Below, piece after piece: positions 35,999 to 64,000 of a stretch of DNA of 64,000 nt. The translations under genes and the position numbers were made by a program. Origin of the DNA: an uncultured delta proteobacterium (GTDB taxonomy: Bacteria > Desulfobacterota > Binatia > Binatales > Binataceae); contig CAVQAR010000020.1 of the NCBI GenBank assembly GCA_963710425.1, positions 105,941 through 169,940 of the forward strand, in the 5' to 3' direction. How positions within the stretch are numbered: the first letter of the stretch is position 1; the number at the start of each line of letters is the position of its first letter. The notes beneath the pieces are model-generated. The model ran no database searches and was not told the DNA's origin. It saw only the letters and a program-made list of their open reading frames with translations.

Positions 35999-36839
35999 TC
36001 AGAAAGGGACGCCGGACGCGCTGAATCCCGAATTTGGCATCGGCGGCGGATAGGTCGGATAGCCGTAGCCGCCGTAGCTCGGCGCGTAGCCGGAACCGAA
36101 TCCGCCGAAGCCCCCGCCGCCTCCGTAGCCTCCGCCGAAGCCGCCGCTGCCACCGCCGAGCGTCATACCGCCGCCCAGCAGCAGCGGGATTATCGTCGTC
36201 AGCATACTCGGCGGGGCGCTGTTGTATTGCTGATACTGCTGGAACTGCTGAAGCTGCTGGCCTTGAGCCGCGTAGGCCTGCGCGTCGGGCGGCAAGTTGT
36301 TCTGATAATCCTGGAGCGAACCGGAAGAGCGCGTACGGATCGGATGCCGTCCGACGGCATCGCATAGCCGGACGACGCTCCCTTAGCAGTCGAGCCTGAA
36401 GTGCCCGCGCTGCCGGCCAGTTCGGGACTGATCTTGATCCGGTTATCGACCACCAGCGACGAGTCCTTCAGATAGTGACGCGCCTTCTGCTCGGCGTCAG
36501 TCTTGCCAAAATCGCTCGCGACGAAACCGAACAGGATGACCTGCTTGCCGCCGCTCGGACTGGTCACGACCTGCGCGCCAACCAGCGGCAACGAATGATG
36601 CTTCAGATAATCGGAGAGACCCTGGCTCTGCGGCGAATCGATCGTACCGCCGGCGACAGTACCCGCGCTCGACGGCGGCGGCATCGAGCCGGAATCGTAG
36701 TTACTCGAGTTCCCGATCGACGACGCGTGGTTGGTGCTGATGCCGTTCGGGTTCTGTATCGGCGTCATGCACGCGGACAAACCCGCGAGAGCGACCGCCA
36801 GCCCGAAGCCCGCCAGGGCATTTGCGATACGACTCATAG
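35999..36839 (-). CDS. BON-domain lipoprotein with a Gly/Tyr-rich C-terminal tail; frameshift in the 36199-36295 overlap
   Basis: Signal peptide and lipobox (LAGLSAC), BON-like segment (VILFGFVASDFGKTDAEQKARHYLKDSSLVVDNRIKI), then GGGYGGGGGFGG in ORF 35999..36295. Confidence 0.5.
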
Positions 36840-37002
36840 GTCGAAGTATAGTCCTGTCCCACTCCCCTAACAATTCGACGAATTTTGGGCGATTTCGTTT
36901 CATTTCGCGAGAACGCTTCGCGTTGCGAGAATGCATTACTCATTCTGCGAGAGGGGGCGCGTCAAATCTAGGCTTTTCGATGGCACGCTCGGTGCAACCT
37001 AC

Positions 37003-37521
37003 ATGACGATGGTACTCAACAAGGAAAACGGGGATCAACTCAATCAAAAGCGCGATACGGCGGAGGTCGAAGCGGCGCTTGCGAGATTGACCAACGAAGA
37101 CTCAAAGCTGGGTGAACGTTTGATCAATGCGGCCGTCGCCGGTGCGGTGGTCGCGCGTCAGCCCGCCGATCCAATGTTGCGAGCCGAAGCGGCCGCAGCG
37201 TGGAACTCGATTAAGCCAGTCATCTCCGAACACCTTAGTTGCCAGAAAGATATCGTGCTCCCGTGGTTGGAGTCGCGAAAGAATTTTCCACCCGACCTAA
37301 TACTGCGCGCCCGCGAGCAGCGCGCCCGTCTGTGCGGCCTGGTGAAAACGATCGACGCATTTTCGTTCATCACGGGGACGGACGAGGAAGTCGCGAAGGC
37401 CGGAACCGCGCTGACCGCATTCGCGGTATGTCTCGACGATCTGATCGACTGTGAAGAACGCGACCTGTTCCCAATGATCCAGCGCAGCCTGTTCGGAGAA
37501 TCCAGCGGCGCCGGCGCATGA
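37003..37521 (+). CDS. hypothetical protein, possibly with a hemerythrin-like (HHE) domain
   Basis: Two H..E/EE..LFP-type segments (ISEHLSCQKDIVLPWLE; LIDCEERDLFPMIQ). Weak support. Confidence 0.3.
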   Translation: MTMVLNKENGDQLNQKRDTAEVEAALARLTNEDSKLGERLINAAVAGAVVARQPADPMLRAEAAAAWNSIKPVISEHLSCQKDIVLPWLESRKNFPPDLILRAREQRARLCGLVKTIDAFSFITGTDEEVAKAGTALTAFAVCLDDLIDCEERDLFPMIQRSLFGESSGAGA

Positions 37522-40243: not shown

Positions 40244-40300
40244 GTAGCGAAGGTGTAGCGAAGGTCTACTTATGGTAGCGATTCTGTAGCGAACATCTAC
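40244..40300 (+). promoter_or_regulatory. four 11-bp direct repeats GTAGCGA(A/T)NNT (GTAGCGAAGGT x2, GTAGCGATTCT, GTAGCGAACAT) in an AT-rich promoter region
   Basis: Read directly. About 125 bp upstream of the hhyS2 start. The 11-bp period puts successive repeats on one helix face. Confidence 0.45.
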
Positions 40301-40424: not shown

Positions 40425-41489
40425 ATGCCGGAAAAATCCGCATCGCGATCCGGATTCCTGTCTGCTCCGGAGATCGAGGAAATCGACATCCTCTGGATCA
40501 CCGCCGGTCTCGGATGCGACGGCGACACGATCGCGATGACCGGCGCGACTCAGCCGAGTATCGAAGACCTGCTCTTGGGCGCGATGCCCGGTATTCCGAA
40601 GGTCACGCTCCACAATCCGTTCCTCGCCTATGAAAATGGCGACGAATTCCTCGCGCCGTTTCACCTGGCCAGAGCAGGACGCCTCGAGCGTCCTTTTATT
40701 CTCGTGGTCGAAGGATCAATTCCCGACGAGACCAACAAGGCCGAGGGCTACTGGGCTGCGATGGGAACCGACCGCGCGACCGGCCAGCCGATCACGACTT
40801 GCAAATGGATTGACGATCTCGCGCCCAAGGCGTGGGCCGTGATCGCGGCCGGCACCTGCGCGACCTACGGCGGAATCCATGCGATGCAGGGCAATCCTAC
40901 CGGTGCGATGGGCCTGCCCGATTACCTCGGATGGAATTGGAAGTCGGCGGCCGGCGTCCCGATAGTTTGCGTGCCCGGTTGTCCCGTGCAGCCCGACAAC
41001 TTCATGGACACGCTCTACTATCTGCTCTGCCAGGCCGCCGGTCATGCGCCCATGATTCCGCTGGATGAAGCTCTGCGCCCGCGATGGCTCTTCACGCAGA
41101 CCGTGCACGAAGGATGCGACCGCGGCGGATACTATGAGCAGGGCGACTTCACCCTGAGTTACGGCGAACCGGCGTGCATCGTGAAACTCGGATGCTGGGG
41201 CCCGGTGGTTCACTGCAACGTCGGCAAGCGCGGGTGGATGGGCGGCGTCGGCGGATGCCCCAACGTCGGCGGCATCTGCATTGGCTGCACGATGCCGGGG
41301 TTTCCCGACAAGTTCATGCCGTTCATGGACGAGCCGCCGGGCGCGAAGTTGTCGTCGTCCGCCGTTCTGATGTATGGACGCGCGGTTCGGGCGTTGCGGC
41401 GCTTCACGATGGAATCGCTCGACAAGGAACCCGAATGGCGCCATCGCCCAGCGCAACCGGAAAATTCGATGGCGCGCAAACCAAAATGA
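40425..41489 (+). CDS. [NiFe]-hydrogenase small-subunit paralog (Tat-less, group-1h-like) with no partnering large subunit
   Basis: Complete FeS-ligand set (GCDGD; CxPGCP; HEGCDRGGYYEQGDF; CIVKLGCWGPVVHCNV; GGCPNVGGICIGC). About 75-80% identical to the operonic small subunit at 56605-57654. No large-subunit gene is adjacent. Confidence 0.85.
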   Translation: MPEKSASRSGFLSAPEIEEIDILWITAGLGCDGDTIAMTGATQPSIEDLLLGAMPGIPKVTLHNPFLAYENGDEFLAPFHLARAGRLERPFILVVEGSIPDETNKAEGYWAAMGTDRATGQPITTCKWIDDLAPKAWAVIAAGTCATYGGIHAMQGNPTGAMGLPDYLGWNWKSAAGVPIVCVPGCPVQPDNFMDTLYYLLCQAAGHAPMIPLDEALRPRWLFTQTVHEGCDRGGYYEQGDFTLSYGEPACIVKLGCWGPVVHCNVGKRGWMGGVGGCPNVGGICIGCTMPGFPDKFMPFMDEPPGAKLSSSAVLMYGRAVRALRRFTMESLDKEPEWRHRPAQPENSMARKPK

Positions 41490-43057
41490 CGACAGCTCGC
41501 AAACTTGAGCCGGTGCAAGCGCCGGAGATCGAAGCGCTTCGCGAGCGGCATCTTGGTCAGACTCAGTCAGAGGCCCAGGCCGTCCTCGAAATGATGGCGC
41601 AAGTCTTCGACCTTGGCGTTTCGACGTTTCGCTCGTTCAATGCGCCGTCGCCAAAGGAGCCGCGGCGGCTGGCGCCGGTGACCGAGGGTCACGACGCGAT
41701 CGTAACCGTAGATGACTCCGCTATCATAACCTCCTTCAGCGACGCGGCCGAGAAGACCTTCGACTACCCGGCCCGCGCCGTCATCGGTAGGCCGCTCGCG
41801 ATTCTCTTCGACTCCGCCGGAATACCGGCGCCTTCAATCTCGGCGGGAAGTCGGAACGAGCGACTGCGTCTCGGCATCCCGCTCGACGCAGTGGGAAAGC
41901 GTCGCGAAGGAACTACGTTCGCGATGGAGATGAGCAGTACCGCGGTCGAGATTGGCGGCGAGCGGCGCTTCGTCATGGTGGTGCGCGATGTAACCGAGCG
42001 CGATCGAGCCGAATCGGAACGGCGCAAGGCCGAGGCCCGCTTTCGCTCGCTGGTCGAGCAGATTCCCGCCGTCACTTTCATGGGATCGCTCAACGAAGAC
42101 AAGAATGAGTTTTACGTCAGCCCGCAGATCGAAGCCTTGTTGGGCTTCTCGCAGGACGAATGGCTGAGCGATCCGTTTCTGTGGTTCAACCAGCTTCATC
42201 CCGACGATCGCAACTACTGTAACCAGGAATTTGCGCGCGGCTGTGTCACCGGCGGTCCGTTTCGCGCCGAGTTTCGCGCGCTGACCCGCGACGGCAAGGT
42301 GGTGTGGGTTCATGGCGAGGCTCGTGTCGTGCGCGACGAGGACGGACGCCCGATGTTTATCCAGGGCGTTGCCTACGACATCACCGAGTCGAAGCGCGCG
42401 GAGGAGACGGTTCGCGCCGGCGCCGAACAGCTCAAGGCCTCGCTCGAAGAAAAGGAGGTCCTGCTGAAAGAGATTCATCACCGGGTGAAGAACAATCTGC
42501 AGGTGATCTCGAGTCTTCTGAAATTGCAGGCGACCCACATCGAAGATCCCGCCGCGCTGGAAATGTTCAACGAGAGCCGTCATCGAATTCAGACGATGGC
42601 GCTGGTGCACGAGAAGCTTTACCAATCGGAAAGTTTCTCGCGGGTGGATTTCGGCGAATACGCGCGCAGTCTTTCGTCCCTGCTGGCCAGCACCTATCGC
42701 GACAAGGCTGCGCGCCTGGCGCTCAAAACCGAGATCGAGGAGGTATCGCTCGGCGTCGATATCGCGCTGCCGCTGGGACTCATCATCAACGAGCTGATTT
42801 CCAACTCGCTGAAGTACGCGTTCCCCAATGGCGGCGAAGGAGAAGTTCGGATCGGAATAAATCGCGTCGGCAACGACCAGCTACAGTTGATAGTCGCAGA
42901 TAACGGCATCGGCTTTCCCGCTAACGTCGATTTCCGCAAAACCGAAACCCTGGGGATGCAACTGGTGCTCGCGCTCTCTGGACAAATCGGCGGCAGCGTC
43001 GAACTTCGCTCCGACGCGGGAACTGAGTTCAGAATCCTGTTCCGCCCGCGAGCCTAG
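41486..43057 (+). CDS. sensor histidine kinase with two PAS domains and an HWE/HisKA_2-type kinase core, translationally coupled (ATGA) to the small-subunit paralog
   Basis: PAS segments, an H-box (EIHHRVKNNLQVISSLL), and a C-terminal HATPase with LIVADNGIGFP. The start ATG overlaps the upstream TGA. Confidence 0.8.
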   Translation: MTTARKLEPVQAPEIEALRERHLGQTQSEAQAVLEMMAQVFDLGVSTFRSFNAPSPKEPRRLAPVTEGHDAIVTVDDSAIITSFSDAAEKTFDYPARAVIGRPLAILFDSAGIPAPSISAGSRNERLRLGIPLDAVGKRREGTTFAMEMSSTAVEIGGERRFVMVVRDVTERDRAESERRKAEARFRSLVEQIPAVTFMGSLNEDKNEFYVSPQIEALLGFSQDEWLSDPFLWFNQLHPDDRNYCNQEFARGCVTGGPFRAEFRALTRDGKVVWVHGEARVVRDEDGRPMFIQGVAYDITESKRAEETVRAGAEQLKASLEEKEVLLKEIHHRVKNNLQVISSLLKLQATHIEDPAALEMFNESRHRIQTMALVHEKLYQSESFSRVDFGEYARSLSSLLASTYRDKAARLALKTEIEEVSLGVDIALPLGLIINELISNSLKYAFPNGGEGEVRIGINRVGNDQLQLIVADNGIGFPANVDFRKTETLGMQLVLALSGQIGGSVELRSDAGTEFRILFRPRA

Positions 43058-44230: not shown

Positions 44231-44620
44231 TCACTCTCGCATCGCCGAGCGCCCCTGCATCATCAGTCCGCCAACCATCGCGACGCCATTCGCGATCAGC
44301 GCCTGGATTTCGGGTGATTTCGAAAGCATCTGCCACGCGTCCATCAAAGGCCGATTGCCCGAGAAACTCATTATCGTCTCGGCCAGGTGTCCGTTGCCCG
44401 ACAGCATGCTGCCGAGCGTCTCGGCCACCGACAGCTTCCCTTCCTCGAAGGTGCTCTGGAAGATCGAGGTTCCGGTCGCGAGCATCCCCTTGAATTCTTC
44501 GGAGTTGACGATCGTCTCCCACGCCTTGCGCAGCTCGTCGAAACGCTCAGGACCCTCTTTCGCCCCCAGCACGTAACCGAGCATGAAACCCAAAAGCGCA
44601 CCCATTGAACTAGTCCTCCC
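44231..44620 (-). CDS. small hypothetical protein (about 125 aa) read in-frame as a C-terminal extension of the HypF ORF
   Basis: HypF homology ends near ...GQVAIAASE. The ORF then continues into MGALLGFMLGYVLGAKEGPERFDELRKAWE..., unrelated to HypF. Confidence 0.3.
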   Translation of the reverse strand, partial: GRTSSMGALLGFMLGYVLGAKEGPERFDELRKAWETIVNSEEFKGMLATGTSIFQSTFEEGKLSVAETLGSMLSGNGHLAETIMSFSGNRPLMDAWQMLSKSPEIQALIANGVAMVGGLMMQGRSAMRE

Positions 44621-46875
44621 TCGCGAGCGCCGAGTCTCAGACGCGGCTATCGCAACTTGTCCAAAACTGATTCCCGCGTCATTGGTCGGGACCTGCCGAT
44701 GCGTCAGCACGTTGAATCCCACGTCCTCCAGCAATCCAACCGTCCGTCGTAGCAATAACTGGTTTTGAAATACGCCGCCGCTGAGCGCGACCAGCGCCAA
44801 TCGGCGCGCGCGCCCGATCGCGATGCATGCGTTGAGGATCATCTGCGCTATCGAATTGTGAAAACGAGCGGCAACGACTGCAATAGAAGCGCCGGCCTGC
44901 AGATCGTTCACCACTGCGCGCACCAGGTCCTTGCCGCGAATTTCAAACGGCATCGCCGATGAAACCGGGACTTCGTAAGCGCCGTCTTCCTCGAGCGACG
45001 CCCGTTGCTCAAGTTCTATCGCCGCCTGCCCTTCATAGTTGATCGTGTCGCGCACCGAAAGGATCGCCGCGACCGCATCGAACAGCCGGCCCGCGCTGGA
45101 AGTGCGCGGCGAGTTCGTATTGCTCCGCATGAGCGCGGAAATCTGCCGCCATTGATCCGCATGCCGCGCGACAACTTCCAGCTGCTCCGGAATAGTTTCA
45201 CCGTAGGCGTGATGCAGGTACGACGCCGCCATTCGCCACGGCTGTTTGATAGCCGCAGTCCCGCCCGGCATCGCGACGGATTCAAGATGGCCAACGCGCT
45301 CAAACTTCGCCAGGTCCGCGATCAGAAATTCGCCGCCCCAGATTGTGTTGTCGAGCCCGAACCCAAGCCCATCGAATGCAACTCCAATAGACGGCCCGTG
45401 CACGCCATTGTCGGCGAGGCATGCGGCAATGTGCGCGTGATGATGCTGCACGGCGACCAACTCGACGCCCTTCAACTCGAGCGCATATTTCGTGGACAGG
45501 TACTCCGGATGCAGGTCATAAGCGACTACCTGGGGATCGATATCGAACAGCCGTCGAAAATGATCGATACCCTCGCGGAACGATCGCAGGGTTTCGAAAT
45601 TTTCCAGGTCGCCGATGTGATGTGATACGAAAGCATGCTGCCGTTTCGCGACGCAAAACGTGTTCTTGAGCTCGGCGCCACAAGCCAGGATCGGCCGCCG
45701 CAGTTTGAACGGAAGCTCAATAGGCTGCGGTGCGTACCCCCGCGAACGGCGCACCGGAACTTCCCGCCCTCGCGAAACCCGCACGACGCTATCGTCAGTG
45801 CGAATATGAATCTGCCGATCGTGAATCAGGAAATAATCTGCGATGGGCGAAAGCCGCTTCGCCGCTTCATCGTCCGTGTACGCAATCGGTTCGTCAGAAA
45901 CGTTGCCGCTGGTGAACACGATCGGCGCGTTGACCGATTCGCATAAGAGATGATGCAGCGGCGTGTACGGCAACATCACACCGATGAATCGATTCGACGG
46001 CGCCACCGAATGCGCCAGATTGGCGTCGAATTTGCGCTCGAGCAGGACAACGGGACGGCGCGGACTAGTCAGCGCACGCTCTTCCACCTCATCAATCGCC
46101 GCCAGTTCGCGTGCCGCCGTCAGATTCGGCGCCATCACGGCAAACGGCTTGTCCTCACGATGCTTGCGCGATCGCAGCACTTCACCGCATCCTCATCCGA
46201 CGCGAGCGCCGCAAGATGATAGCCGCCGAGGCCTTTCACCGCGAGAATTTTTCCAGCTCTCAACAGCTCGGCAGCTTTGCGAATCGGATCGCCAGCCTGT
46301 GCGATTCCATTTCGATCGATCAAACGCACAGCAGGGCCGCATGCCGGGCAGCAAACCGGCTCCGCGTGGAATCGCCGATCGGACGGATCGTGATATTCGC
46401 GCGCGCAGTCTGCGCACATCGGAAACTCGGCCATCGTCGTCAGCCCGCGGTCGTATGGCACGCCGCGAACGACCGTGAATCGCGGACCGCAATTGGTGCA
46501 ATTGGTGAACGGGTAGCGATAGCGCCGATCAAGCGGATCGAAAATCTCGCGGATGCAGTCGTCGCAAGTCGCGATGTCGGGAGAAATCAAAACCTGCCGC
46601 TCGCCATCGACCTGGCTCGCCAGTATCGCAAATTCCGATCGTTTCGCGACCGGAATCAGCTCGGCCGTCACATTCAGTATCGATGCAAGTGGCGGCGCAT
46701 CGGTCACCAGCCGCGAGCGGAACTCCGCGACGTTCGCGACGCTTCCCTCGACCTCGATCGCGACGCCGTGCAAGTCGTTGACGATCGAACCGCCGAGCCC
46801 CAACTTTTGCGCGAGGCCGAAAACGAACGGCCGAAACCCTACCCCCTGCACGATTCCATCAATCCTGATACGCAT
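44600..46875 (-). CDS. hypF: carbamoyltransferase HypF; frameshift in the 46135-46180 overlap
   Basis: ORF 46135..46938 has the acylphosphatase domain, two Zn-finger CxxC pairs and the start of the YrdC domain. ORF 44231..46180 carries YrdC and the Kae1-like domain. Confidence 0.85.
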
Positions 46876-46946
46876 CGCCACGCGATTCCGAGGTTCGTGA
46901 GGTAACGATTGGGAGACAGTGTGTTCAGCCGGTCGCATTCCCGTCT

Positions 46947-53910: not shown

Positions 53911-54773
53911 TTCATGAGCGGAGCAGCGATCGCGACTCTCACTCCGTCCTGATCTTCGAGCAAGGGCACTGGCTCAAGATGCAATCCGCGGCTCTCGGTC
54001 GATCGGCCGGCCAGACGCGGGTCATAATTCTTGTTGCACGATGGACAGACCACCAGGCTGTGAGTCACGTTGCCGCCGCCCATCGCGGAACCGCATGCCG
54101 GGCACGCGTCGCGATACGCGTAGAGTTGCCCTTCGACCCGGCACAGCACGATTCGCGATCCCATCGCTTCGGTCGAAGTGAGAAGGCTGGCGGGAAATCC
54201 GTTTTGGTCGCCAATCGATACCCATGTCGGCTCGATCTCGGCTGCTCGCTCGCGCGGAGATTTGGATTCGGTGACGCCTTCGACCTCGATCGTCGAAGCC
54301 TCGGGCGCCGCCTCGCGAATCGCAGTTTCCACCGCGAGCTTTACAGTCAACAGCGACGACGGGCATCCGTCGCAGCTACCTTTCATCCGCAGTCGCACCA
54401 GGCCGGTATCCAGACTGAGATCGACGATCTCGACGTCGCCGCCGTGCGATCCGAGATACGGCCGCACGCGCTCGAGCGCCTCGCGCACACGGGTTTCGAA
54501 GTCCTTGGGATGCAACCCATGCAGGATCAGCAGGCTCGAGACCAAATCGTCGGCAGCGAGTTGCGCGCGCAAACGCTCGCCGGCGCTGCCGTCCGCGGCC
54601 GCGATCTCGTCGATGCGCTTGAGACCTTCGCCGTAGAGATGCACCACGGAGCGGACGATCTCCTCGACTCGTTCCCACACCGGCGGACTCGCCATCGAGC
54701 GAACCTCCTCGAGCAGCGGCTCGATTCGTTCGCTGAGTTCGCGCAACTTCCCCTGATCTCCCCGACGCGCCAT
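53907..54773 (-). CDS. NifU-like (Fe-S scaffold C-terminal domain) protein with a C-terminal Cys-rich (Rieske/zinc-ribbon-like) region, hydrogenase-associated
   Basis: GSHGGDVEIVDLSLDTGLVRLRMKGSCDGCPSSLLT NifU C-terminal motif, then CPACG...CPSC. Start chosen at MARRGD, overlapping the hhyL stop. Confidence 0.6.
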   Translation of the reverse strand: MARRGDQGKLRELSERIEPLLEEVRSMASPPVWERVEEIVRSVVHLYGEGLKRIDEIAAADGSAGERLRAQLAADDLVSSLLILHGLHPKDFETRVREALERVRPYLGSHGGDVEIVDLSLDTGLVRLRMKGSCDGCPSSLLTVKLAVETAIREAAPEASTIEVEGVTESKSPRERAAEIEPTWVSIGDQNGFPASLLTSTEAMGSRIVLCRVEGQLYAYRDACPACGSAMGGGNVTHSLVVCPSCNKNYDPRLAGRSTESRGLHLEPVPLLEDQDGVRVAIAAPLMN

Positions 54774-56542
54774 CAGTCGCCCACTGTGTTCATCATCGTC
54801 GGCGAGTGGATTTTCTTCAGCACCTTCCCCTTGCCGACGTACATGTGCACGCCGCACGGCAGGCACGGGTCGAAGCTGCGGACGGTGCGCATAATGTCTA
54901 TGCCTTTGAACTTGTCGGGACCGTTCTCCTCGAAAATCGGCGTGTTCTGCACGGCGTCTTCATACGGTCCCGGCGTTCCGTAGACGTCGCGCGGATTCGC
55001 GTTCCACGGCGTTGGCGGATACGGATGATAGTTCGCGATTTTGCCGCCGCGAATCACCATGTGATGCGACAGCACGCCGCGCACCGCTTCAGTGAAGCCG
55101 CAGCCGATGCCTTCGTCAGGCACTTTGAATTGCTCCCAGGTCTTGGTGTGACCCGCGCGCACTTCGGCCAGCGCCTTCTCGGTGAAATGGAGCGCGCACG
55201 CGGCCGCGTAGGCCTGGAAGTAAGTTCGCGCGCGGTCGCGCTCGATCGTGTTCGACCACTTCGGCATCTTCCACTCGAAATCGACGGGCCCCTTGGTCGC
55301 GCTCTTGGGCAGGTGGATCTGGACGCTGTTGCCGGTCGCCTTGACGTAGTCGTTATTCACCAGTCCCGACAGCGCAGTCGACCACAAACGCGCGATTGGC
55401 CCGCCGCCGGTGTCGAGCGCCAGGTGATCCTTGCCGTCGAACCATCGTGGCGACATGACCCAGCTATACTTGCCGTCGAAATCGCGCTTCTGAGGCTTGG
55501 GCACGGTGTGTTGATTCCACGGATGCCGGCGATCAACTGGATTGCCGAGCGGGTCTTTGGTTACGAACATCTCCTGGTCTTCCCAATCGTCGTAGAAGGA
55601 ATGACCGAGCAGAATCCGAATCCCGAGATTTATTTTGACGAGATCGTTAGTGACCAGTTTGCCGTCAACCACGATGCCCGGGGTGACGAACATCTTGCGT
55701 CCCCACTCGGTCATGTCCCGGTAGTTGAAATTGCAATATTCGGGATCCTGGAACGAGCCCCAGCAGTTGAGCAGGATTCGCCGCTTGCCGACTTCTTCGT
55801 AGCCGGGCAGGGCGGTGTAAAAGAAATTGAACAGGTCGTCGTGCATCGGAACCGCGCGCTTGAGGAACTCGACGTAGCGCATCAGGCGCGTCAGGTAGTC
55901 GGTGAAAAGCTGGACGGTCGCTACTGTGCCGACGCCACCAGGATAGAGCGTCGAAGGATGCACGTGGCGTCCTTCCATCAGGCAGAACATCTCGCGCGTG
56001 TAGCGGCTGACCTGCAATGCTTCGCGGTAGAATTCGCCCTCGAGCGGATTGACCGCCTTCATAATGTCGCCAATGGTGCGATAGCCGTGCGCGGCGGCGC
56101 CCGGCGCTTCGGCCTTGACCGCTTTCTCCCACAGGCCGGGATTGGTCTCGCGCACCATCCGCTCGCAGAAATCCACTGCGACCAGGTTTTCTTGAAAAAT
56201 GTTGTGATCGAACATGTACTCGGCGGCTTCGCCGAGATTCACAATCCATTCGCCGAGATGCGGCGGCTTCACGCCGTACGCCATGTTCTGCGTGTAGCAT
56301 GAACAGGTCGCGTGATTGTCGCCGCAGATTCCGCAGATGCGACTCGTGATGAAATGGGCGTCGCGCGGGTCCTTGCCTTTCATGAAGATGCTGTAGCCGC
56401 GGAAGATCGACGACGTGCTATGGCACTCGGCGACCTTTTTCTTGCCGAAGTCGATCTTCGTGTAGATTCCGAGGCTGCCGACGATTCGTGTGATCGGATC
56501 CCAATTCATCTCGACCAGGCCGTCGGTTGTCTTCGTCGCCAT
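54773..56542 (-). CDS. hhyL: [NiFe]-hydrogenase large subunit (likely group 1h/5, Hhy-type)
   Basis: N-terminal RICGICGDNH and C-terminal DPCLPCGVH nickel-binding motifs, plus a C-terminal extension for protease processing. Confidence 0.9.
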   Translation of the reverse strand: MATKTTDGLVEMNWDPITRIVGSLGIYTKIDFGKKKVAECHSTSSIFRGYSIFMKGKDPRDAHFITSRICGICGDNHATCSCYTQNMAYGVKPPHLGEWIVNLGEAAEYMFDHNIFQENLVAVDFCERMVRETNPGLWEKAVKAEAPGAAAHGYRTIGDIMKAVNPLEGEFYREALQVSRYTREMFCLMEGRHVHPSTLYPGGVGTVATVQLFTDYLTRLMRYVEFLKRAVPMHDDLFNFFYTALPGYEEVGKRRILLNCWGSFQDPEYCNFNYRDMTEWGRKMFVTPGIVVDGKLVTNDLVKINLGIRILLGHSFYDDWEDQEMFVTKDPLGNPVDRRHPWNQHTVPKPQKRDFDGKYSWVMSPRWFDGKDHLALDTGGGPIARLWSTALSGLVNNDYVKATGNSVQIHLPKSATKGPVDFEWKMPKWSNTIERDRARTYFQAYAAACALHFTEKALAEVRAGHTKTWEQFKVPDEGIGCGFTEAVRGVLSHHMVIRGGKIANYHPYPPTPWNANPRDVYGTPGPYEDAVQNTPIFEENGPDKFKGIDIMRTVRSFDPCLPCGVHMYVGKGKVLKKIHSPTMMNTVGD

Positions 56543-56604: not shown

Positions 56605-57654
56605 CTACCATCGCGGCCGGTAGCCGGTCTTCAGTTCTTTGCCGCGCACGCGCCACTTGGGTTCATCCTCCAGCGTGCTCAGCGTGTACGATCGCAGCGT
56701 TCGAACGACTGACCCAAGGACGTTGGCCATGCGTGTGGAAACTTTGGCGCCCGGAGGTTCATCCATGAACGGCATGAACTTGTCGGGGAAGCCGGGCATC
56801 GTGCATCCGATACAAATCCCGCCGACGTTGGGGCATCCGCCGACGCCGCCCATCCATCCGCGCTTGGGCACATTGCATTTCACCACCGGGCCCCAGCAGC
56901 CGAGCTTGACGATGCATTTTGGCGATCCGTATTCGTCGGCGAAGTCGCCACCTTCGTAGTAGCCGGCGCGGTCGCATCCTTCGTGAACGGTGTTGCCGAA
57001 GAGCCATTGCGGCCGATGCTCTTCGTCGAGCGGAATCATCGGCGCCTGGCCGGTCGCCTGGTAGAGCAGGTACAGGATGGTCTCGGAAAGATTGTCGGGT
57101 TGAATCGGACATCCGGGCACGCAGACGATCGGAATCCCGGCGCCTGATTTCCAATCCCAGCCGAGGTAGTCGAGCACACCCATCGCGCCGGTCGGATTGC
57201 CCTGCATCGCATGGATACCGCCGTAGGTCGCGCAGGTCCCGACCGCCAGTACCAGCAACGCCTTCGGCGCCAGCCGGTCGATCCATTCGCTGGTCGTCAT
57301 TGGCTGTCCAGTCGCCGGATTGTTGCCAAACCCGCACCAGTAGCCTTCTTTCTTGATCGCTTCGTTGGGGATCGATCCTTCGATCACGAGTACGAACGGG
57401 ATCCAACTCGCCGCGCTCGCCCTTGAAGAACCATTCGATGAAGTCGTCGGTCTTATGACCGACCGGCCCGGTCTCGTACGCGATCAGCGGCCAATGAACG
57501 TCAACTTTGGGCAAGCCGGGCAGGGTGCCGAGGACGATATCCTCGATGCTGGGCTGCATCGCAGCGGTAAGCGCAACCGAATCGCCGTCACACGATAGTC
57601 CCGCGTTGATCCAGAGGATATGAACCACGGGGTCATTTCCGTTGGTCGGCATCG
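56605..57654 (-). CDS. hhyS: [NiFe]-hydrogenase small subunit, Tat-less (group-1h-like); frameshift at about 57387-57400
   Basis: ORF 56759..57679 gives the N-terminus from the ATG at 57652 (AAGGAGG ribosome-binding site; HILWINAGLSCDGD). ORF 56605..57387 continues (VIEGSIPNE...) with the full FeS-ligand set. Confidence 0.9.
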
Positions 57655-57796
57655 AGGTTCCTCCTTGTTCAGCCGACAACGGTCAAGGCGTCGCCGGACA
57701 GTCACCGGTATCTGTAGAAAACTTTTACAAGGTTCCCGTTTCTATTTTTTTAGAGTGCGCTATTTCGCTCGCGCTTTTGCTGCACACGAAACTCGA

Positions 57797-57813
57797 CGCA
57801 TCAAATGTGCCAT
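57797..57813 (-). promoter_or_regulatory. sigma54 (-24/-12) promoter TGGCAC-ATTTGA-TGC with consensus GG/GC spacing, about 135 nt upstream of hhyS
   Basis: Minus-strand sequence aTGGCACatttgaTGCg read directly. GG-N10-GC spacing is exact. Confidence 0.6.
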
Positions 57814-57961
57814 GCGATTTTATCTGCTGTCTTCAAAAAGCCTCGCGATCATATGTTTCTGAGGCCGGTCGCTCCCTTGATTGCATCGCTTTTGTTGCGA
57901 CACCCTGCGACACTCGCGCGAAGCGACCGCTCGATCATTTACAGTCTTCAAATCCGCCAAG

Positions 57962-58077
57962 GTCGCGAATGCGCGACAGCTGTCGCATTGTGTCGCGCGA
58001 TGAACAGGGCCGGATCAAAATAGCGGCGAGATTCACGATCAGAGCGAGCGATAGCTGTAGCGTGATGTCGCGCGACA
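57962..58077. promoter_or_regulatory. cluster of GTCGCG/CGCGAC palindromes (GTCGCGaatgCGCGAC; TGTCGCattgtGTCGCGCGA; TGTCGCGCGACA); candidate enhancer sites for the adjacent sigma54 activator
   Basis: Perfect inverted repeats read directly, 150-270 bp upstream of the sigma54 promoter. Confidence 0.45.
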
Positions 58078-58085
58078 GATGGCTG

Positions 58086-59048
58086 TTAGCGGGCCAGTCG
58101 CCGATAAACCGTCGAGCGATGGATTCCGAGCCGGCGTGCAGTTTCGGACACGTTGTTGTTGGACGCCTCGAGCACCGCTTTTATGCCGTCGGTGCGATGT
58201 CCGTTGTGATGCCCATTGCTGTGTCCCTTGTGCAGAGCGTCGGCCTTCGATCCTTCGATGCTGCGATCGATCCATAGCTCGGCGGGCAAGTCGCCGGCTG
58301 TAATCCGATCCTCGGCCGAGGCGAGAATCGCCCGCAACATTATATTGCGCAGCCCGCGCGCGTTGCCCGGCCACGCATACGGGCAGGTCCTGAGCGCCGT
58401 CCAGACTTCGTCCTCGACTTCGCCGAGGAAGTGGAGTTCCTCACGCAGGCATTTTTCCGCGATCGGCCGCAGGTCGTCGCGTCGTTCACGCAGCGGCGGA
58501 ATTTGAATCACGAGACAGTTGAGCCGATAGAGCAGATCCGATCGCACGCGCTGTTCCGATTCGAGCTGCTCTACCGTAATGTTCGACGCCGCAATCACAT
58601 TCACGTCGGCATGAACCGGCCGCGTACCGCCGACGCGGACGAAATCTCCAGTCTCCAGGAACCGCAGCAGGACGCTCTGCGCAGTCGGCGGCAGATCCTG
58701 CAACTCGTCAAGAAAAAGGGTTCCGTTGGTGGCCGCGTCGATCAATCCACCGCGCGCCTGGCGGTCGGCGCCAGTGAACGATCCCGCCTCATAGCCGCAC
58801 ATTTCTGCAATCGCCAAATCGCCGCAGAGCGTGCCGCAATTTATCGCAACAAAAGGACCTTCGCGGCGCTGGCTGGCATTGTGAATGGAATGCGCGAAAA
58901 GCTCCTTGCCAGTTCCCGACTCGCCCACGATCAACGTCTGAAAATTGCTCTCGGCCGCTCGATGAGCGAGCCGAATAGCGCCTTGAATTGAGTCGCTGGT
59001 ACCCAGGATGTCGTCGAAGCTGAAATGAGCGGGCCAAGCATGCATCAT
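58086..59048 (-). CDS. sigma54-dependent transcriptional activator (AAA+ domain plus Fis-type HTH) with no N-terminal receiver or sensor domain
   Basis: Walker A (GESGTGKE), GSFTGA (GAFTGA-type) sigma54-contact motif, and a C-terminal HTH (ETARRLGIHRSTVYRRL). The AAA+ domain starts about 20 residues from the N-terminus. Confidence 0.85.
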   Translation of the reverse strand: MMHAWPAHFSFDDILGTSDSIQGAIRLAHRAAESNFQTLIVGESGTGKELFAHSIHNASQRREGPFVAINCGTLCGDLAIAEMCGYEAGSFTGADRQARGGLIDAATNGTLFLDELQDLPPTAQSVLLRFLETGDFVRVGGTRPVHADVNVIAASNITVEQLESEQRVRSDLLYRLNCLVIQIPPLRERRDDLRPIAEKCLREELHFLGEVEDEVWTALRTCPYAWPGNARGLRNIMLRAILASAEDRITAGDLPAELWIDRSIEGSKADALHKGHSNGHHNGHRTDGIKAVLEASNNNVSETARRLGIHRSTVYRRLAR

Positions 59049-59125
59049 TGTTAGCCTCTCGCCGCCGAAAGAAGCCCCCAAGATCGGCCCCGAGTATGCT
59101 ACCTTGATCCAAAGACGTCAACGCA

Positions 59126-59872
59126 ATGAGCACCCAGCTGGCGCGAGTACTGATAGTCGAAGATGAGAGCATCACCGCGCTCCACATCAAGACTATCCTC
59201 GACGCCAAGGGCTACGCTGTTCCCGCGATCGTCGGGAGTGGCGACGAAGCTATCGAGATGGCCGGCGAGCTGAACCCCGATCTCGTTCTGATGGACATCA
59301 GGCTTCGCGGCAACGTCGATGGTATCGAGGCGGCTGGGGCTATCCGCAGCAGGTTCAACGTGCCGGTGGTCTATTTGACCGCGTACGCCGATACCGAAAC
59401 TTCGGAACGCGCTCGTCTGACCGAGCCCTATGGCTACTTGCTCAAGCCTTTCGACGAACGCGAGCTGATGATCGTGGTCGAGATGGCGCTGTATCGGCAC
59501 AAAATGGAACGCAAGCTGAAGGAGAGCGAGCGCTGGCTCACTGCAACCCTTCGCAGCATCGGAGATTCGGTTATCGCAACCGACGCCGAATGGAAAATCC
59601 GATTCATGAATCCGCGCGCCGAGAGTCTCACCGGATGGGCCGCCGACCTCGCGATCGGACGCGAGTTGGCCGAGGTGGTTCGCGTCTCACTCACCGCGAA
59701 TCCGCGGCCGCTGTCGCCGAGCCTCGCATTGAACGGCGGCGGCATGGCAGAAGGGATCCTCACCACTCGCGACGGCAGCGAGATCGCAGTCGAGGAAAAC
59801 AGCACCACCATTCGCGACGAGCGCGGCCGCGTGATGGGCACCGTCATCGCAATTCGAAAAAAGCGCACTTAA
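59126..59872 (+). CDS. response regulator with REC plus PAS domains and no DNA-binding output
   Basis: REC motifs (VLIVEDE, phospho-acceptor D in LVLMDIRL, KPF) followed by a PAS-like region. Confidence 0.75.
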   Translation: MSTQLARVLIVEDESITALHIKTILDAKGYAVPAIVGSGDEAIEMAGELNPDLVLMDIRLRGNVDGIEAAGAIRSRFNVPVVYLTAYADTETSERARLTEPYGYLLKPFDERELMIVVEMALYRHKMERKLKESERWLTATLRSIGDSVIATDAEWKIRFMNPRAESLTGWAADLAIGRELAEVVRVSLTANPRPLSPSLALNGGGMAEGILTTRDGSEIAVEENSTTIRDERGRVMGTVIAIRKKRT

Positions 59873-60355: not shown

Positions 60356-63300
60356 TCAGCCGAGTACGATTTTCACCTGATGCGTGACGCCGTCGTCGGC
60401 GAGTTCGATTTGCGCTGGCCGTTGCGCGAGTAGTTTGCCGTCCAACTCGACGCTGCTCACTCCGCGACTGACGTTGTGCGGGTTGGTGACCGCGATTTCA
60501 TAGCGCGTCGATCCGTAGCGATAGACAATCTCGAAGCCCGGCCATTTTCGCGGGATGCATGGATCGATCACCAGCGTTTTGCCGCGGAGACGAAAGCCCA
60601 AAATCCATTCGAGGCCGGCACGATACATCCAACCCGCCGATCCCGTGTACCAAGTCCATCCGCCGCGACCGACGTGCGGCGGCATCGAGTAAACGTCGGC
60701 GCAGACGACGTAAGGCTCGACTTTGTAGCGATGGATTCCCGCGCGTGTGTTCGCATGATCGATCGGGTTCAGCATCGAGAAGAGATCGCCGGCCTTGTCG
60801 CCGTCACCGAGCATCGCAAATGCGATCACGGACCACATCGCGCCATGCGTGTACTGTCCGCCGTTCTCCCTGATGCCGGGTGGGTAGCCCTTGATATAGC
60901 CCGGGTCGAGCGGCGTGTGATCGAATGGCGGTGTGAACAGCAGCACGAGGCCGTCGTCGCGCTTGACCAGGTATTCATCGACCGAGGCCATCGCTGTGGC
61001 CGCGCGATCCGGGCTCGCCGCGCCGGAGATTACGCTCCACGACTGCGCTATCGAATCGATTCTGCATTCGAGATTGCCCGCTGAGCCGAGCGGCGAGCCG
61101 TCATCGAAATAACCGCGCCGATACCAGTTGCCGTCCCATCCATCGCGCTCGAGCGACGCCGCAAGCGCTGTCGAGTGTGCTCGCCACGTCGAAGCGCGTG
61201 CGTTGTCGTTGCGAATTTCCGCCAATGGCGCGAACAGTTGCAGCGTCGTGTAGAGGAACCATCCGAGCCAGACGCTCTCTCCCTTGCCCGCCTCGCCGAC
61301 GCGATTCATGCCATCGTTCCAGTCGCCCGACCCGAACAGCGGGATCCCATGGACGCCGACCGCGAGGCTTTGCGTCGAGACCGCGCGCGCAATGCTCGAA
61401 TAGCGTGCCGCTCTGCTCGGAAACCGTCGGCTGAAAAAACGATTCAACTTCGCCCGGATGCAGTTCCGGTCCGTCAAGGAATGGAATCTTTTCGTCGAGG
61501 ATGCCGGCGTCGCCCGTCGCCTCTATATAATGAGCGACCGCGTACGCCAGCCAGACTCGATCGTCGGCGATACGCGTGCGGACTCCTTGGCCCGCTGGCG
61601 GCAGCCACCAATGTTGCACGTCGCCGGCGACGAACTGGCGCGACGCCGCGCGAAGCAGGTGCTCGCGCGCAATCGAAGGCCGCGCCACCGTCAACGCCAT
61701 CACGTCCTGAAGCTGATCGCGAAAGCCGTACGCGCCGCTGGCCTGGTAAAATGCCGACCGCGCCAACACTCGGCACGCCAGCGTCTGATACAGCAGCCAG
61801 CGGTTGAGCATGATGTCCATCGAGCGGTCGGGCGTCTTGACCTGAACCGCGCCCAGCAAGTCGTCCCAGTATTGCTTGACCGTGGTCAGCGCCGAATCGA
61901 GATCGGCGGTGCGATATTTTTTATGGCGGCTATCGCATCGGCCCTGCTCGCCGCCTCGCCGAGAAGGAAACTGACTTCGGTCTCGGCGTTGGGCCGGAGA
62001 GAGATCGTCGTCTGCAGCGCGGCGCAGGGATCCATCGCGGCGCCGGATTTTGGGACGAGTCGATTGCCGGCGGCAAGTGCCGCGGGATTGTCGAGCGTGC
62101 CGTTACGGCCGAGAAAGCCGGTCCGGTCCGCGGTTGACGACGTTTGCTTGCCGCGCAAATCCGCGAAAGCGGTGCGGTTCCCGTATTCGACGCTGAAAGA
62201 ATTGCGCGCCAGTATCGCACGGGTCTCCGGCTCGATCTCCGTGACGATGTACGGTGCCGACGCGCCGCGCGACGTGCCCAGCACCCATTCCACGTATGCG
62301 GTTACCGACATTCGCCGCGCACGCGGCGAGAGATTGCGGATTTTCAGCGTCGAAATCTTGACCGAGTCGTCCACCGGCACGTATTGCGTCAGCTCGAGCG
62401 CGACGCCATGCGAGGTGTGCTCGAACACAGCTGTAGCCGTGCCCGTGACGCACGACGTAAGGCGCCGAATCCTCGCGGATCGGAAGCGCGGTCGGTCCCC
62501 ACAGCTCGCCGGTGTCGAGGTCCTGAACGTAGATCACCTCGCCGGGCCGGTCGCTGACCGCATCGTTCGACCATTGCGTAATCTGATGCTGCTGGCTGTT
62601 GATCGCCCACGTGTAGCCGCTGCCCTCGACCGAAACCTGGAAGCCGAACGATTGATTCGCGATCACGTTGATCCACGGCGCCGGCGTCCACTGCCCCTCG
62701 CCAAGGATCGTCACGTACTCGCGGCCGTCCTCGGCAAATCCGCCGAGACCGTTGAAAAATTCGAGCTCACGCCTCGGCGTCGAAGACGCGACTCGCTGCA
62801 TCGCGCGAGTCCGCCGCAGTGGCGGACTTGTCGCCGGTGCGAACATCTCCAACCGTTTGACTTGATCAGACAACCTGCCGCGGCGGCTCAGCAACACCGC
62901 CCGCGCCACCGTCTGCAACACGCTTCGAAGCTCGGCCGAAACCAGGTCGGCGCGCAGCACGAACACATTTCCGGGCGCACTCGCTCCCTCAGATCGTGTC
63001 GGAATAGTCCGGACCATGCCCTCGAGTGCGCCCTGCAATTCCTGATGGTACGACGGCGGTCGTTCGTTAACGATCACTAGGTCGACTCCCAGCCACTTCA
63101 TCCGCCAATATTCATGCGCGCGCACCAACTCGCGCACGATCTCCACATCCTCGATTTCGTCGATGCGAACCAACACGATCGGCAGATCGCCTGAAATGCC
63201 GGCCGGCCACAGCTTCGACTGTCCACCCTCGCCGCGCCGCAGCAGGTCGGACGAAGGCCGCAGCGTCGGATCGGAATACAGCACGCGATTGGCGATACGT

Positions 63301-64000
63301 TGAAAAAGATGCGCCTCGTCCGCATCGACGCGCAGATGATGCAATTGCACCTGCGCCTGCGTCCACGCGAGCGTCACCGCGCGCTCGAACGCGCTCGGGT
63401 CGCGATGCTTATCGACGAGGTCGAGTGCGTCGGCCCGCGTCGGCGCGATGATCGTCCAGAACGCGACGCGCGCGGTCGCCCCCGCCGGGATTCGCAGCCG
63501 CCGGCGAACGCTGAAGATCGGATCGAGCACTGTGCCGACGGTGTCCGACAGCGGACGTCCATCGATCACCGAAACAGCGTCGCAGACATCGCGGCCGCGC
63601 CCGAGAAATCGCGCGCGATCGGTCTCGAACTGAATCTCGCCCACCGACTCGCCCTCGGCCACCGCCAGATGCGCCGCCCAGACCGGCACTTCGTTCGGCG
63701 ACGCGTAGCCGCCGCGTCGCCAGTATCGCGCCAACCTCGGCGTCGAACTCCGTCTGCACGAACATCTTGGAGAATGCCGGATGCGCCGTGTCCGACGCCT
63801 CGGTCGCGAGCACGATTTCCGCGTACGAAGTCAGCTCGACTTCGCGGACGCGGTTGCCGAGATTCGAAATCGAGACGCGCCGCACTTCGGCGTTGTCCTC
63901 GGGCGACACCGCGACCTCGAGCGTCGTCGTCATGGTGCCGTCGCGCCGCACGATCACCGCGCGGTCCTCTGAGAACTCGACCTGGTAGCTGTCCGCCTCG
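60356..64000 (-). CDS. C-terminal part of a giant GH94-family (cellobiose/cellodextrin-phosphorylase-like, NdvB-type) multi-module protein; several frameshifts; continues beyond the window end
   Basis: ORFs 60356..61477, 61101..61859, 61886..62428, 62103..63734 and 63409..63957 each carry GH94 segments ([11 protein letters not shown] in the (alpha/alpha)6 barrel; repeated N-terminal beta-sandwich modules) and are co-oriented. Confidence 0.6.

Follow-up and report, generated by a model that had tools for sequence, protein, structure and literature searches.

The closest described counterparts of the locus analyzed here are the H2-sensing cascades HoxBC-HoxJ-HoxA of Cupriavidus necator and HupUV-HupT-HupR of Rhodobacter and Bradyrhizobium, which resemble it in pairing the gene of a hydrogenase-like sensor with that of a PAS histidine kinase and in having as output an activator of the NtrC family (HoxA or HupR) that acts on hydrogenase genes. 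Sigma-54 RNA polymerase requires an ATPase activator for promoter opening, and the control of such activators by other proteins is illustrated by PspF-PspA of E. coli, the paradigm of an activator governed in trans by its partner; by NifL-NifA of Azotobacter vinelandii, wherein the PAS-containing NifL, encoded beside NifA, controls NifA by contact and relays redox and energy status; and by HrpR/HrpS-HrpV of Pseudomonas syringae, in which receiver-less sigma-54 activators are restrained by a small partner. High-affinity group 1h hydrogenases (Hhy) account for much of the removal of H2 from the atmosphere. The hydrogenase activator of C. necator and B. japonicum works at sigma-54 promoters, and a 2026 commentary on the mycobacterial enzymes Huc/Hhy describes what turns them on, proteins and signals alike, as unidentified (PMC13289019). 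In the literature searched, neither a sigma-54 or activator link for Hhy nor a prior description of the circuit proposed below was found; the circuit looks like a previously undescribed one, and it likely parallels HoxBC-HoxJ-HoxA with different parts.

The window (the whole 64-kb stretch of DNA that was analyzed) carries on its minus strand the small-subunit gene hhyS (56605..57652) and the large-subunit gene hhyL (54773..56542, identified by Pfam and structure search), followed on the same strand, down to 43054, by genes for an hhyE-like NifU-Rieske protein, DUF5947 and DUF6084 proteins, a HycI-like protease, and hyp functions. The enzyme is assigned to group 1h by its large-subunit match (5AA5 leads the solved structures with 1097.6 bits, the next match scoring 161) and by its accessory genes, the set of hhyE, DUF5947, and DUF6084 having been described for acidobacterial group 1h operons (PMC5900883). 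The assembly is indel-rich, and hhyS is interrupted by a 1-nt insertion near 57401, a frameshift that, if real, makes the regulated gene a pseudogene; hypF and a GH94 gene are frameshifted as well. The account that we favor, and regard as fairly probable as a whole, is that hhy is controlled by sigma-54 and by the receiver-less activator encoded immediately upstream (here termed ACT), with input from a PAS protein, a histidine kinase, and an orphan HhyS paralog (SSU').

The operon of hhyS, hhyL, and accessory and hyp genes would be transcribed from a predicted sigma-54 promoter, TGGCACATTTGATGC (57812->57798, minus strand). The near-consensus -24/-12 element that the initial annotation had placed before hhyS is present: it has the exact GG-N10-GC spacing, differs from the consensus at one position (its -12 element being ATGC, not TTGC), is conserved across lineages, and ends 146 nt upstream of the hhyS ATG (57652). 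The predicted transcription start, at about 57786, gives a 5'UTR of about 134 nt (57653..57786, minus strand) with blocks that close relatives share (CGCGAGCGAAAT at 57762-57773 and AGAAAC-N15-GTTTTCT at 57716-57743); a structured RNA was not detected in it, the fold being non-significant (z = -0.65). As the match in the window alone is not significant (2 elements with at most one mismatch vs 4.2 expected, and 4 vs 5.5 with a looser pattern), the case for the promoter rests on cross-lineage conservation. An 18-nt promoter block is identical in loci L086 and L087, equivalents stand upstream of hhyS in L084, L096, L109, L115, L165, L168, and L169, with the perfect consensus TGGCAC-N5-TTGC in L165, and the promoter has been kept among lineages whose activators are 60-66% identical and whose flanking sequence has diverged. 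Searches detected no sigma-70-like promoter upstream of hhyS, no IHF consensus between the enhancer sites and the promoter, no terminator between ACT and hhyS, and no RpoN box in the 64-kb window or in the fetched activator-family loci.

Between this promoter and the activator gene lies a cluster of repeats (57897-58077). The GTCGCG palindrome had been proposed as the informative unit, but this hexamer shows no enrichment over the window (190 observed vs 172 +/- 12 expected) and was therefore rejected in favor of the half-site TGTCGC, arranged in 10-bp-phased repeats: 7 of its 68 copies in the window fall inside the cluster, where ~0.19 would be expected (Poisson estimate ~1e-9), and all three window matches to GCGACA-N4-GCGACA (at most one mismatch) are found there as well. 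From the original set of GTCGCG/CGCGAC palindromes, the perfect 12-mer TGTCGCGCGACA is real and conserved, whereas the middle one, GTCGCG-N4-CGCGAC, is not conserved; GTCGCGAATGCGCGAC is located at 57962-57977. The proximal putative enhancer site, TGTCGCAGGGTGTCGC (57897..57912, minus strand), comprises two half-sites 10 bp apart and is conserved in L086, L087, L081, L096, and L109; its start lies 100 bp upstream of that of the promoter, a spacing that is 100-102 bp across four cassettes. Repeat comparison delimits a distal putative set B, TCGCGCGACA-caat-GCGACA-gc-TGTCGC (57973..58000, minus strand), which includes the 14-bp perfect palindrome GCGACAGCTGTCGC (57973-57986) and is the counterpart of the distal site in the L087 hhyS cassette, and a distal putative set A (58048..58077, minus strand), in which the 12-mer (58066-58077) is followed by N4-GCTACA. 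Set A, an 82% copy of set B, begins 9 bp past the activator stop codon; the 12-mer also lies directly 3' of the activator stop codon in L084, L086, L087, and L115. The conserved proximal site and the 14-bp palindrome had been overlooked by the initial annotation.

Together, these elements form a cassette of constant order (distal TGTCGCGCGACA-N4-GCGACA, proximal TGTCGC-N4-TGTCGC, then -24/-12) that is found upstream of hhyS in about eight lineages (the window, L086, L087, L084, L096/L095/L104, L109, L115, L165, L168, and L169) and upstream of two other genes, namely the SSU'-kinase operon in L081 and a 312-aa gene in L087. In a three-way alignment of close relatives, islands of conservation coincide exactly with the cassette elements, with divergence between them. 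The motif GCGACA-N4-GCGACA has 36 matches in 186 kb of ACT-family loci, some of them redundant, whereas 1.17 Mb of unrelated activator loci yield 6 (~38-fold), and the 12-mer has 8 matches vs 0 in the same comparison. The control loci are those of the 35-44% identical relatives that a scan of genome contigs with the family alignment returned, a scan saturated by generic activator motifs; metagenomes were then searched with a family-specific sub-alignment. By these comparisons the putative enhancer cluster is conserved and specific to ACT-family loci. We infer that ACT most likely binds the TGTCGC half-sites, in 10-bp-phased pairs, through its Fis-type HTH, docking at the distal block (duplicated here) and at the inverted proximal block, from which it would loop to the promoter. 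A very improbable alternative is that the repeats are operators of another protein, for example a repressor, or that hhyS is expressed by read-through or from a sigma-70 promoter, the -24/-12 match being incidental. The chance-level promoter count in the window and the terminator-free interval between ACT and hhyS would suit such a reading, which is countered by the exact GG-N10-GC element in 12 cassettes with otherwise unrelated flanks (perfect in L165), by the enrichment of the repeats in ACT-family loci, by the status of ACT as the sole DNA-binding protein consistently encoded at these loci, and by L087, where the cassette keeps with its downstream genes despite an inserted gene.

ACT (320 aa; 58086..59048, minus strand; open reading frame 58086-59081, likely ATG at 59048) would be the ATPase that opens the hhyS promoter. 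It is classed as an AAA+ sigma-54 activator by its Pfam domains (Sigma54_activat, PF00158, residues 14-181, E = 5.9e-54; AAA_lid_14, 187-262; HTH_8, 289-320) and by its motifs, which include Walker A GESGTGKE, LFLDE, and a loop reading GSFTGA in place of GAFTGA, the loop by which such activators contact sigma-54; the protein runs from the AAA+ domain through the lid and a disordered linker to the Fis-type HTH. Across 22 family members there is no variation at F91, T92, or G93 and little at A94 (at least 90% conserved), G[SA]FTGA is present in nearly all, and most HTH positions are invariant. The family comprises ~80 protein clusters, all of 310-350 aa with a common N-terminus, and ACT lies in an hhy/hyp cluster in all 14 loci that have enough flank. 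Its neighbors in the window are the genes for REC-PAS and DoxX proteins and hhyS, and it is preceded by a sigma-70-like promoter candidate, TTGACG-17-CATACT (59093..59121, minus strand), found by consensus match only.

The initial annotation had described this activator as PspF-like and devoid of receiver or GAF domains, a description borne out by Pfam, which finds no domain N-terminal to the AAA+ domain, and by the uniformly short family. A receiver hidden by a frameshift, named beforehand as one observation that would overturn that description, is excluded: the open frame extends no further than a stop immediately upstream of 59081, and the divergent REC-PAS gene is intact and starts 77 bp away. 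The nearest REC-containing relatives of ACT are only ~42% identical. The AlphaFold model (pLDDT 80.9) has TM scores of ~0.85 to the AAA+ domains of FleQ, NtrC1, and PspF and an rmsd of ~2.5 A to PspF(1-265), and ACT shares with PspF an AAA+ domain and HTH, the lack of an N-terminal regulatory domain, and a length of ~320 aa. By sequence, nevertheless, ACT is PspF-like in architecture only, as it scores 199.4 bits against TIGR02974 (cut-off 443.55) and 173.3 against PRK11608 (cut-off 529), no PspA-type gene was found among its neighbors, its regulon is a hydrogenase, and its candidate partner is a PAS protein. Membership of the NtrC, PrpR, NifA, and FhlA families was likewise rejected, ACT falling below the curated cut-offs for all of them. 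FhlA, the activator of E. coli formate hydrogenlyase, also serves a [NiFe]-hydrogenase with sigma-54 and gives a weak NCBIfam match to ACT (172 bits vs a cut-off of 830), but it bears large N-terminal formate-binding GAF domains.

An activator that does its own sensing is judged quite unlikely. In that scheme ACT would respond to redox state through family-specific cysteines, such as C84 beside the GSFTGA loop, or would take up a nucleotide second messenger on its AAA+ domain in the manner of FleQ, and the PAS protein would be an accessory. C84 is invariant, where Phe occupies the position in the aligned structure 6jdi and in a related PAS-AAA+ activator, C200 and C222 are nearly invariant, and FleQ is among the closest solved AAA+ domains; the argument for a ligand or redox site is, however, one of residue conservation alone, and it leaves the linkage of kinase, REC-PAS, and SSU' genes unexplained. 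Since ACT is without a sensor of its own, its activity is instead probably set in trans by a PAS protein, which here would be the product of the divergent gene. That REC-PAS protein (248 aa; 59126..59872, plus strand), a candidate ACT partner or adaptor from its Pfam domains and co-occurrence, retains canonical receiver residues, and its PAS domain is the more strongly conserved of the two. The PAS proteins that travel with ACT take REC-PAS, degenerate-REC-PAS, and PAS-only forms, and their co-occurrence with ACT spans four gene arrangements, including divergent, convergent, and intervening ones; the partner is PAS-only in L165 and L168, the L165 copy being 57% identical to the PAS domain of the window. 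Contact between this partner and ACT, and its sign, are proposals, inhibition being likelier than activation because NifL-NifA and PspA-PspF work in that way. NifL-NifA (complex 9QQ6) resembles the pair in placing a PAS protein beside a sigma-54 activator, and NifA is among the sequence and structure matches of ACT; unlike ACT, NifA has its own GAF domain, and NifL is a large PAS-PAS-kinase-like protein rather than a REC-PAS or 123-aa PAS protein. HrpR/HrpS differ further, being a hetero-hexamer of two paralogs with an unrelated partner and a type III secretion regulon.

A search for Rosetta-stone (fission/fusion) support for the pairing found none: no REC-PAS/sigma-54 AAA+ fusion protein occurs among the best 120 REC-PAS homologs. 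Nor does the PAS domain of the window resemble the one in a PAS-AAA+ relative. It is also conceivable, although unlikely, that nothing regulates the ACT protein itself, output instead following the amount of ACT (as for HrpR/HrpS-type activators) or sigma-54 availability, and that the PAS protein and kinase act on another target, the hydrogenase or an ECF sigma factor being examples. Consistent with this are the sigma-70-like promoter candidate before ACT, the five family loci in which no PAS gene was found within the fetched flanks (L082, L084, L112, L115, and L170), the generic and very large REC-PAS family (~5,100 matches), and the ECF sigma gene that adjoins REC-PAS in L081. Linkage of the PAS protein to ACT nevertheless survives all four arrangements and the loss of REC, a persistence difficult to account for unless they share a function, and the SSU'-kinase operon of L081 stands behind an ACT-type cassette, an arrangement that ties the ACT and kinase modules together.

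The promoter, enhancers, activator, and REC-PAS partner of the earlier reading have each gained independent comparative support. A further module of the window had been overlooked, namely SSU' (40425..41489, plus strand) and a PAS-PAS-HisKA_2/HWE histidine kinase (41486..43057, plus strand; Pfam/NCBIfam-type domain search), the kinase start overlapping the SSU' stop codon (ATGA). SSU' is 67% identical to HhyS over 328 aligned residues, retains the cysteine motifs in the alignment, and lacks the HhyS C-terminal TGYxPRW tail. The module lies 15 kb from ACT in the window; the kinase is linked to REC-PAS and ACT in L081, L094, L102, L105, L111, L167, L169, and the P0040 locus, and overlapping genes form kinase-REC-PAS or SSU'-(LSU')-kinase-REC-PAS operons in L102, L105, L111, L167, L169, and the P0040 locus. 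The HhyL paralog LSU' is part of the operon at two of these (L167 and the P0040 locus), and the sensor paralogs, 73% identical to HhyL and 63-68% to HhyS, derive from group 1h. The kinase is similar to PhyK, and the receiver of REC-PAS to that of PhyR, a known type of pairing. Because the HisKA_2 kinase and REC-PAS are co-operonic in several lineages, following a small-subunit paralog, phosphorylation probably still contributes to the pathway, one step ahead of ACT. REC-PAS would thereby receive phosphoryl input from the kinase, and SSU', translationally coupled to the kinase gene, is a candidate hydrogenase-derived iron-sulfur sensor of redox or H2. No ACT-type cassette precedes the SSU'-kinase operon of the window, which has four copies of GTAGCGA there instead; this repeat was not seen in L081, L102, or L113.

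The operons of L167 and the P0040 locus, which run small subunit, large subunit, kinase, regulator, recall the Hox and Hup systems. The differences are several: the sensor paralogs here descend from group 1h, not group 2b, the window has the small-subunit paralog only, the kinase is of the HisKA_2/HWE type, and the target hydrogenase is a high-affinity enzyme of group 1h. In addition, HoxA and HupR carry the receiver on the activator itself, whereas ACT is without REC and the functions are split between a REC-PAS or PAS-only protein and an AAA+/HTH protein. The boldest reading of the locus is put forward tentatively and with less than even confidence. It is that Acidobacteriota and relatives in soil control their group 1h hydrogenase, the scavenger of atmospheric H2, by a sensory pathway not recognized before: a group 1h paralog (SSU' and LSU' in some lineages, SSU' alone here), docked to the HisKA_2 kinase, senses H2 or redox, and the kinase signals through the REC-PAS or PAS-only adaptor, which gates receiver-less ACT on phased TGTCGC repeats. 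If true, it would add a second regulatory hydrogenase, independently evolved, beside group 2b, and a split response-regulator, PAS-gated design would join the known controls of sigma-54 activators. The locus supplies a testable model composed of a promoter, a 6-bp half-site with conserved grammar, a dedicated activator family, and a candidate signal chain starting with hydrogenase paralogs. An 'hhyS homolog' is already on record, with measurements, for cultured Acidobacteria (PMC8027828), so that this model may be testable in isolates.

The loci of one receiver-less activator family, that of ACT, the AAA+/HTH sigma-54 activator adjoining hhyS, are specifically marked by a sigma-54-type promoter and by TGTCGC repeats in phase, both of them conserved. 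Members occur in hhy/hyp clusters in all 14 loci with sufficient flank, and show conserved linkage to genes for a PAS protein, for a HisKA_2 kinase and for paralogs of hydrogenase subunits. The relevant genes of the window (hhyS, hhyL, the accessory and hyp genes, and ACT) lie on the minus strand. hhyS (start ATG at 57652, preceded by GGAGGA) is followed by hhyL (56542->54773), a NifU-Rieske hhyE-like gene, DUF5947 and DUF6084, and farther downstream by a 458-aa ORF and genes for a HycI-like protease, hypD, hypE, an MIase-like protein, hypF, hypA and hypB, ending at 43054. HhyL belongs to group 1h, its top solved relative being 5AA5, the C. necator actinobacterial-type enzyme (1097.6 bits, with the next match at 161). 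Upstream of hhyS, a 433-bp intergenic region separates it from the activator gene (58086-59048; reading frame open as far as 59081), 77 bp from which a REC-PAS gene (59126-59872) diverges; the opposite end of the same cluster holds a pair (40425-43057) encoding SSU', an HhyS paralog, and a PAS-HisKA_2 histidine kinase. Relative to L086 and L087, two of the ACT-family loci from other lineages (L-numbered, with the P0040 locus), hhyS carries a 1-nt insertion near 57401 that splits it into two frames (57387-57401; GGATCCCG versus GGA-CCCG). hypF is broken into two overlapping ORFs (44231-46938), a GH94 glycosyl hydrolase lies in at least four pieces (60356-63957), and the SSU' gene of L081 is likewise frameshifted, a pattern that suggests assembly indel errors, possibly from long reads, rather than true pseudogenes, though a real one is conceivable.

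The proposed -24/-12 element (TGGCACATTTGATGC, 57812->57798, minus strand) has exact GG-N10-GC spacing and lies 146 nt from the hhyS ATG, giving a predicted 5'UTR of about 134 nt. Judged within the window only, such matches are indistinguishable from chance (2 found, 4.2 expected; 4 versus 5.5 for a looser pattern); the sole other match with at most one mismatch, TGGCACGCTCGGTGC (36981-36995, plus strand), falls where the overlapping ORFs 36199-36936 (minus) and 36931-37521 (plus) meet. The palindromes that the initial annotation described as GTCGCG-type are present, including the 12-mer TGTCGCGCGACA (58066-58077) and GTCGCGAATGCGCGAC (57962-57977), but the GTCGCG hexamer is not enriched in the window; enrichment is seen instead for the TGTCGC half-site, of which 7 of 68 window copies fall within 57897-58077, together with all three window matches to GCGACA-N4-GCGACA. 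A repeat finder additionally returned two direct copies of a 28-nt stretch (57973-58000 and 58048-58075) that agree at 82% and, at 57897-57912 and 57981-57996, two 16-nt stretches in inverted orientation. No sigma-70-like promoter was detected upstream of hhyS; a candidate (TTGACG-17-CATACT, 59093-59121, minus) lies upstream of ACT, in the 77 bp that separate it from the divergent REC-PAS gene, and as no terminator separates ACT from hhyS, read-through could supply basal hhyS transcription. The 5'UTR contains blocks (57716-57773) common to the window, L086 and L087 (CGCGAGCGAAAT, with the inverted repeat AGAAAC-N15-GTTTTCT); because the RNA fold of this UTR is not significant (z = -0.65), these blocks may serve as an operator in the DNA or bind a protein as RNA.

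Comparison with family loci, drawn from metagenomes and by exact protein look-up, supports the sigma-54 assignment. Wherever hhyS is present in the fetched loci, its upstream region bears the same three-part cassette: a distal site (TGTCGCGCGACA-N4-GCGACA), an inverted proximal site (TGTCGC-N4-TGTCGC) and a GG-N10-GC sigma-54 element. The last reads TGGCACATTTGATGC in L086 and L087 as in the window, CGGCATCGCGTTTGC in L084, TGGCATYGCGATTGC in L095/96/104, TGGCATCCCAATTGC in L109, CGGCACGCAATCTGC in L115, TGGCACTGCCATTGC (a perfect consensus) in L165, TGGCATTGGCATTGC in L168 and TGGCATCGACATTGC in L169. The activators of cassette-bearing lineages are merely 60-66% identical to that of the window, and the DNA between the elements does not align; among three close relatives, conservation is limited to the distal and proximal sites, an 18-nt promoter block, the ribosome-binding site and a pair of blocks in the 5'UTR. 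Four cassettes place the proximal site 100-102 bp from the promoter, and two place it 145-153 bp away. In the family loci (186 kb, a set that includes some redundant loci) GCGACA-N4-GCGACA turns up 36 times and the 12-mer 8 times; 1.17 Mb around unrelated activators contains 6 copies of the former and none of the latter. The cassette likewise precedes the SSU'-kinase operon of L081 (promoter TGGCACGCACGATGC), and L087 bears a second one upstream of a 312-aa gene set between ACT and hhyS (promoter CGGCACACATGATGC); it thus behaves like the mark of a regulon that can move between genes, not like something tied to the 3' end of the activator. The inserted gene of L087 (5727-6920), whose product has a hydrophobic, signal-peptide-like N-terminus, has a full cassette of its own (TGTCGCGCGACA-N4-GCGACA, then TGTCGCAGCTTGTCGG, then CGGCACACATGATGC). 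The duplicated distal site of the window (sets A and B) corresponds to the pair of distal sites in L087, as might be left by a loss of the 312-aa gene from the window.

The architecture ascribed to ACT, that of a receiver-less, PspF-like activator, was recovered: Sigma54_activat (residues 14-181), AAA_lid_14, a linker and HTH_8, with nothing N-terminal of AAA+ and GSFTGA as the GAFTGA motif. Its AlphaFold model (pLDDT 80.9, disorder limited to the GSFTGA loop and linker) reaches a TM of about 0.85 against the AAA+ domains of FleQ, NtrC1 and PspF. The likeness to PspF is one of architecture only, and ACT falls below the PspF family threshold; it is a member of none of the curated NCBIfam activator families. 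A hidden receiver is excluded, since the ORF is closed, the upstream DNA is an intact opposite-strand gene and all family members are short. The family is sharply bounded (about 80 clusters, 56-91% identical, all 310-350 aa), and beyond it the next matches, at about 42%, are REC-NtrC proteins of the usual kind. Invariant positions comprise the N-terminal W-x-A-x-F-S-F-D-D-I-L-G, F91/T92/G93 of G[SA]FTGA and most of the HTH.

ACT is joined by a PAS partner of one of four kinds: REC-PAS encoded divergently (window, L081, L085-L094), REC-PAS encoded convergently (L097-L111), a degenerate-receiver form between ACT and hhyS (L095/96/104/109), and a PAS-only protein of 123-129 aa that has lost the receiver (L165:9012-9383 and L168:9049-9438), the L165 copy being 57% identical to the window's PAS domain. 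Comparison of match lists suggests that ACT and REC-PAS share further contigs; no PAS gene was found in the fetched flanks of five family loci (L082, L084, L112, L115, L170). Invariant residues cluster in the PAS domain and linker, and the receiver keeps its canonical acidic, Thr and Lys positions save in the degenerate clade. Given the PAS-only proteins and the L095/96/104 clade, in which the receiver is without its phospho-acceptor region, the PAS domain emerges as the conserved core.

In L102, L105, L111, L167, L169 and the P0040 locus, an operon that starts with the PAS-HisKA_2 kinase gene ends in REC-PAS; the kinase most closely resembles PhyK, and the receiver that of PhyR. Upstream of the kinase lies SSU', which forms its own clade (77-81% identity within it versus 63-68% to HhyS) and keeps the cysteine-containing motifs visible in alignment with HhyS, without the C-terminal TGYxPRW tail of the latter. 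In L167 (9965-14698) and the P0040 locus, which has a separate hhySL pair nearby, an HhyL paralog (LSU') intervenes, forming an SSU'-LSU'-kinase-REC-PAS operon with four-base overlaps where gene calls were available. LSU' of L167 shares 73% identity with HhyL and retains the two [NiFe] cysteine motifs (RICGICGDNH and DPCLPCGVH), and the SSU'-LSU' pair is a candidate group-1h-derived sensory hydrogenase. The window has no LSU'; its orphan SSU' is translationally coupled, through an ATGA overlap, to a PAS-PAS-HisKA_2 kinase. L081, L102 and L169 show linkage of the SSU'-kinase pair with REC-PAS and ACT. Upstream of the window's SSU' (40244-40292) lie four GTAGCGA repeats, two 11-bp-phased pairs in a 27-nt imperfect tandem, unlike the TGTCGC sites and not seen upstream of SSU' in L081, L102 or L113.

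A circuit may be proposed in which ACT would bind the TGTCGC repeats, oligomerise and remodel E-sigma-54 at the hhyS promoter, with the PAS protein gating it through direct contact, most likely by inhibition if NifL-NifA and PspA-PspF are apt analogies. The kinase would set the state of REC-PAS, and the kinase might in turn be informed of redox state or H2 by SSU', with or without LSU', much as HoxJ is by HoxBC. Judged from sequence, the promoter-plus-activator core is very probable, while the full chain from sensor to promoter has an even chance at best and perhaps only one in three. What the initial annotation observed is confirmed, and its interpretation is supported with two corrections: TGTCGC half-sites replace the GTCGCG palindromes as the putative enhancer unit, and a kinase and hydrogenase paralogs are added to the chain of signals. 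Nearest in logic are the HoxBC-HoxJ-HoxA and HupUV-HupT-HupR cascades, from which the ACT circuit differs in its sensor of group 1h descent, its HisKA_2 kinase and a regulator split into adaptor and receiver-less activator. Searches of the literature found nothing that ties Hhy to sigma-54 or to any activator; RT-qPCR measurements exist for an 'hhyS homolog' noticed in Acidobacteria, for which no function was proposed (PMC8027828). The proposed circuit bears on how atmospheric-H2 oxidisers control their hydrogenases.

Two further features were observed in other family loci. In L081, the leader of about 350 nt from the sigma-54 promoter to SSU' contains a strong GC hairpin (CCCCTTCCC-tttta-GGGAAGGGG, 10040-10075, minus), perhaps an attenuator, perhaps a repeat element. 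In L165, a second near-perfect sigma-54 element (TGGCACCGCTTTTGC, 5017-5031, minus) lies about 50 nt upstream of a gene for a 931-aa PAS/HisKA/REC hybrid kinase near the hydrogenase cluster.
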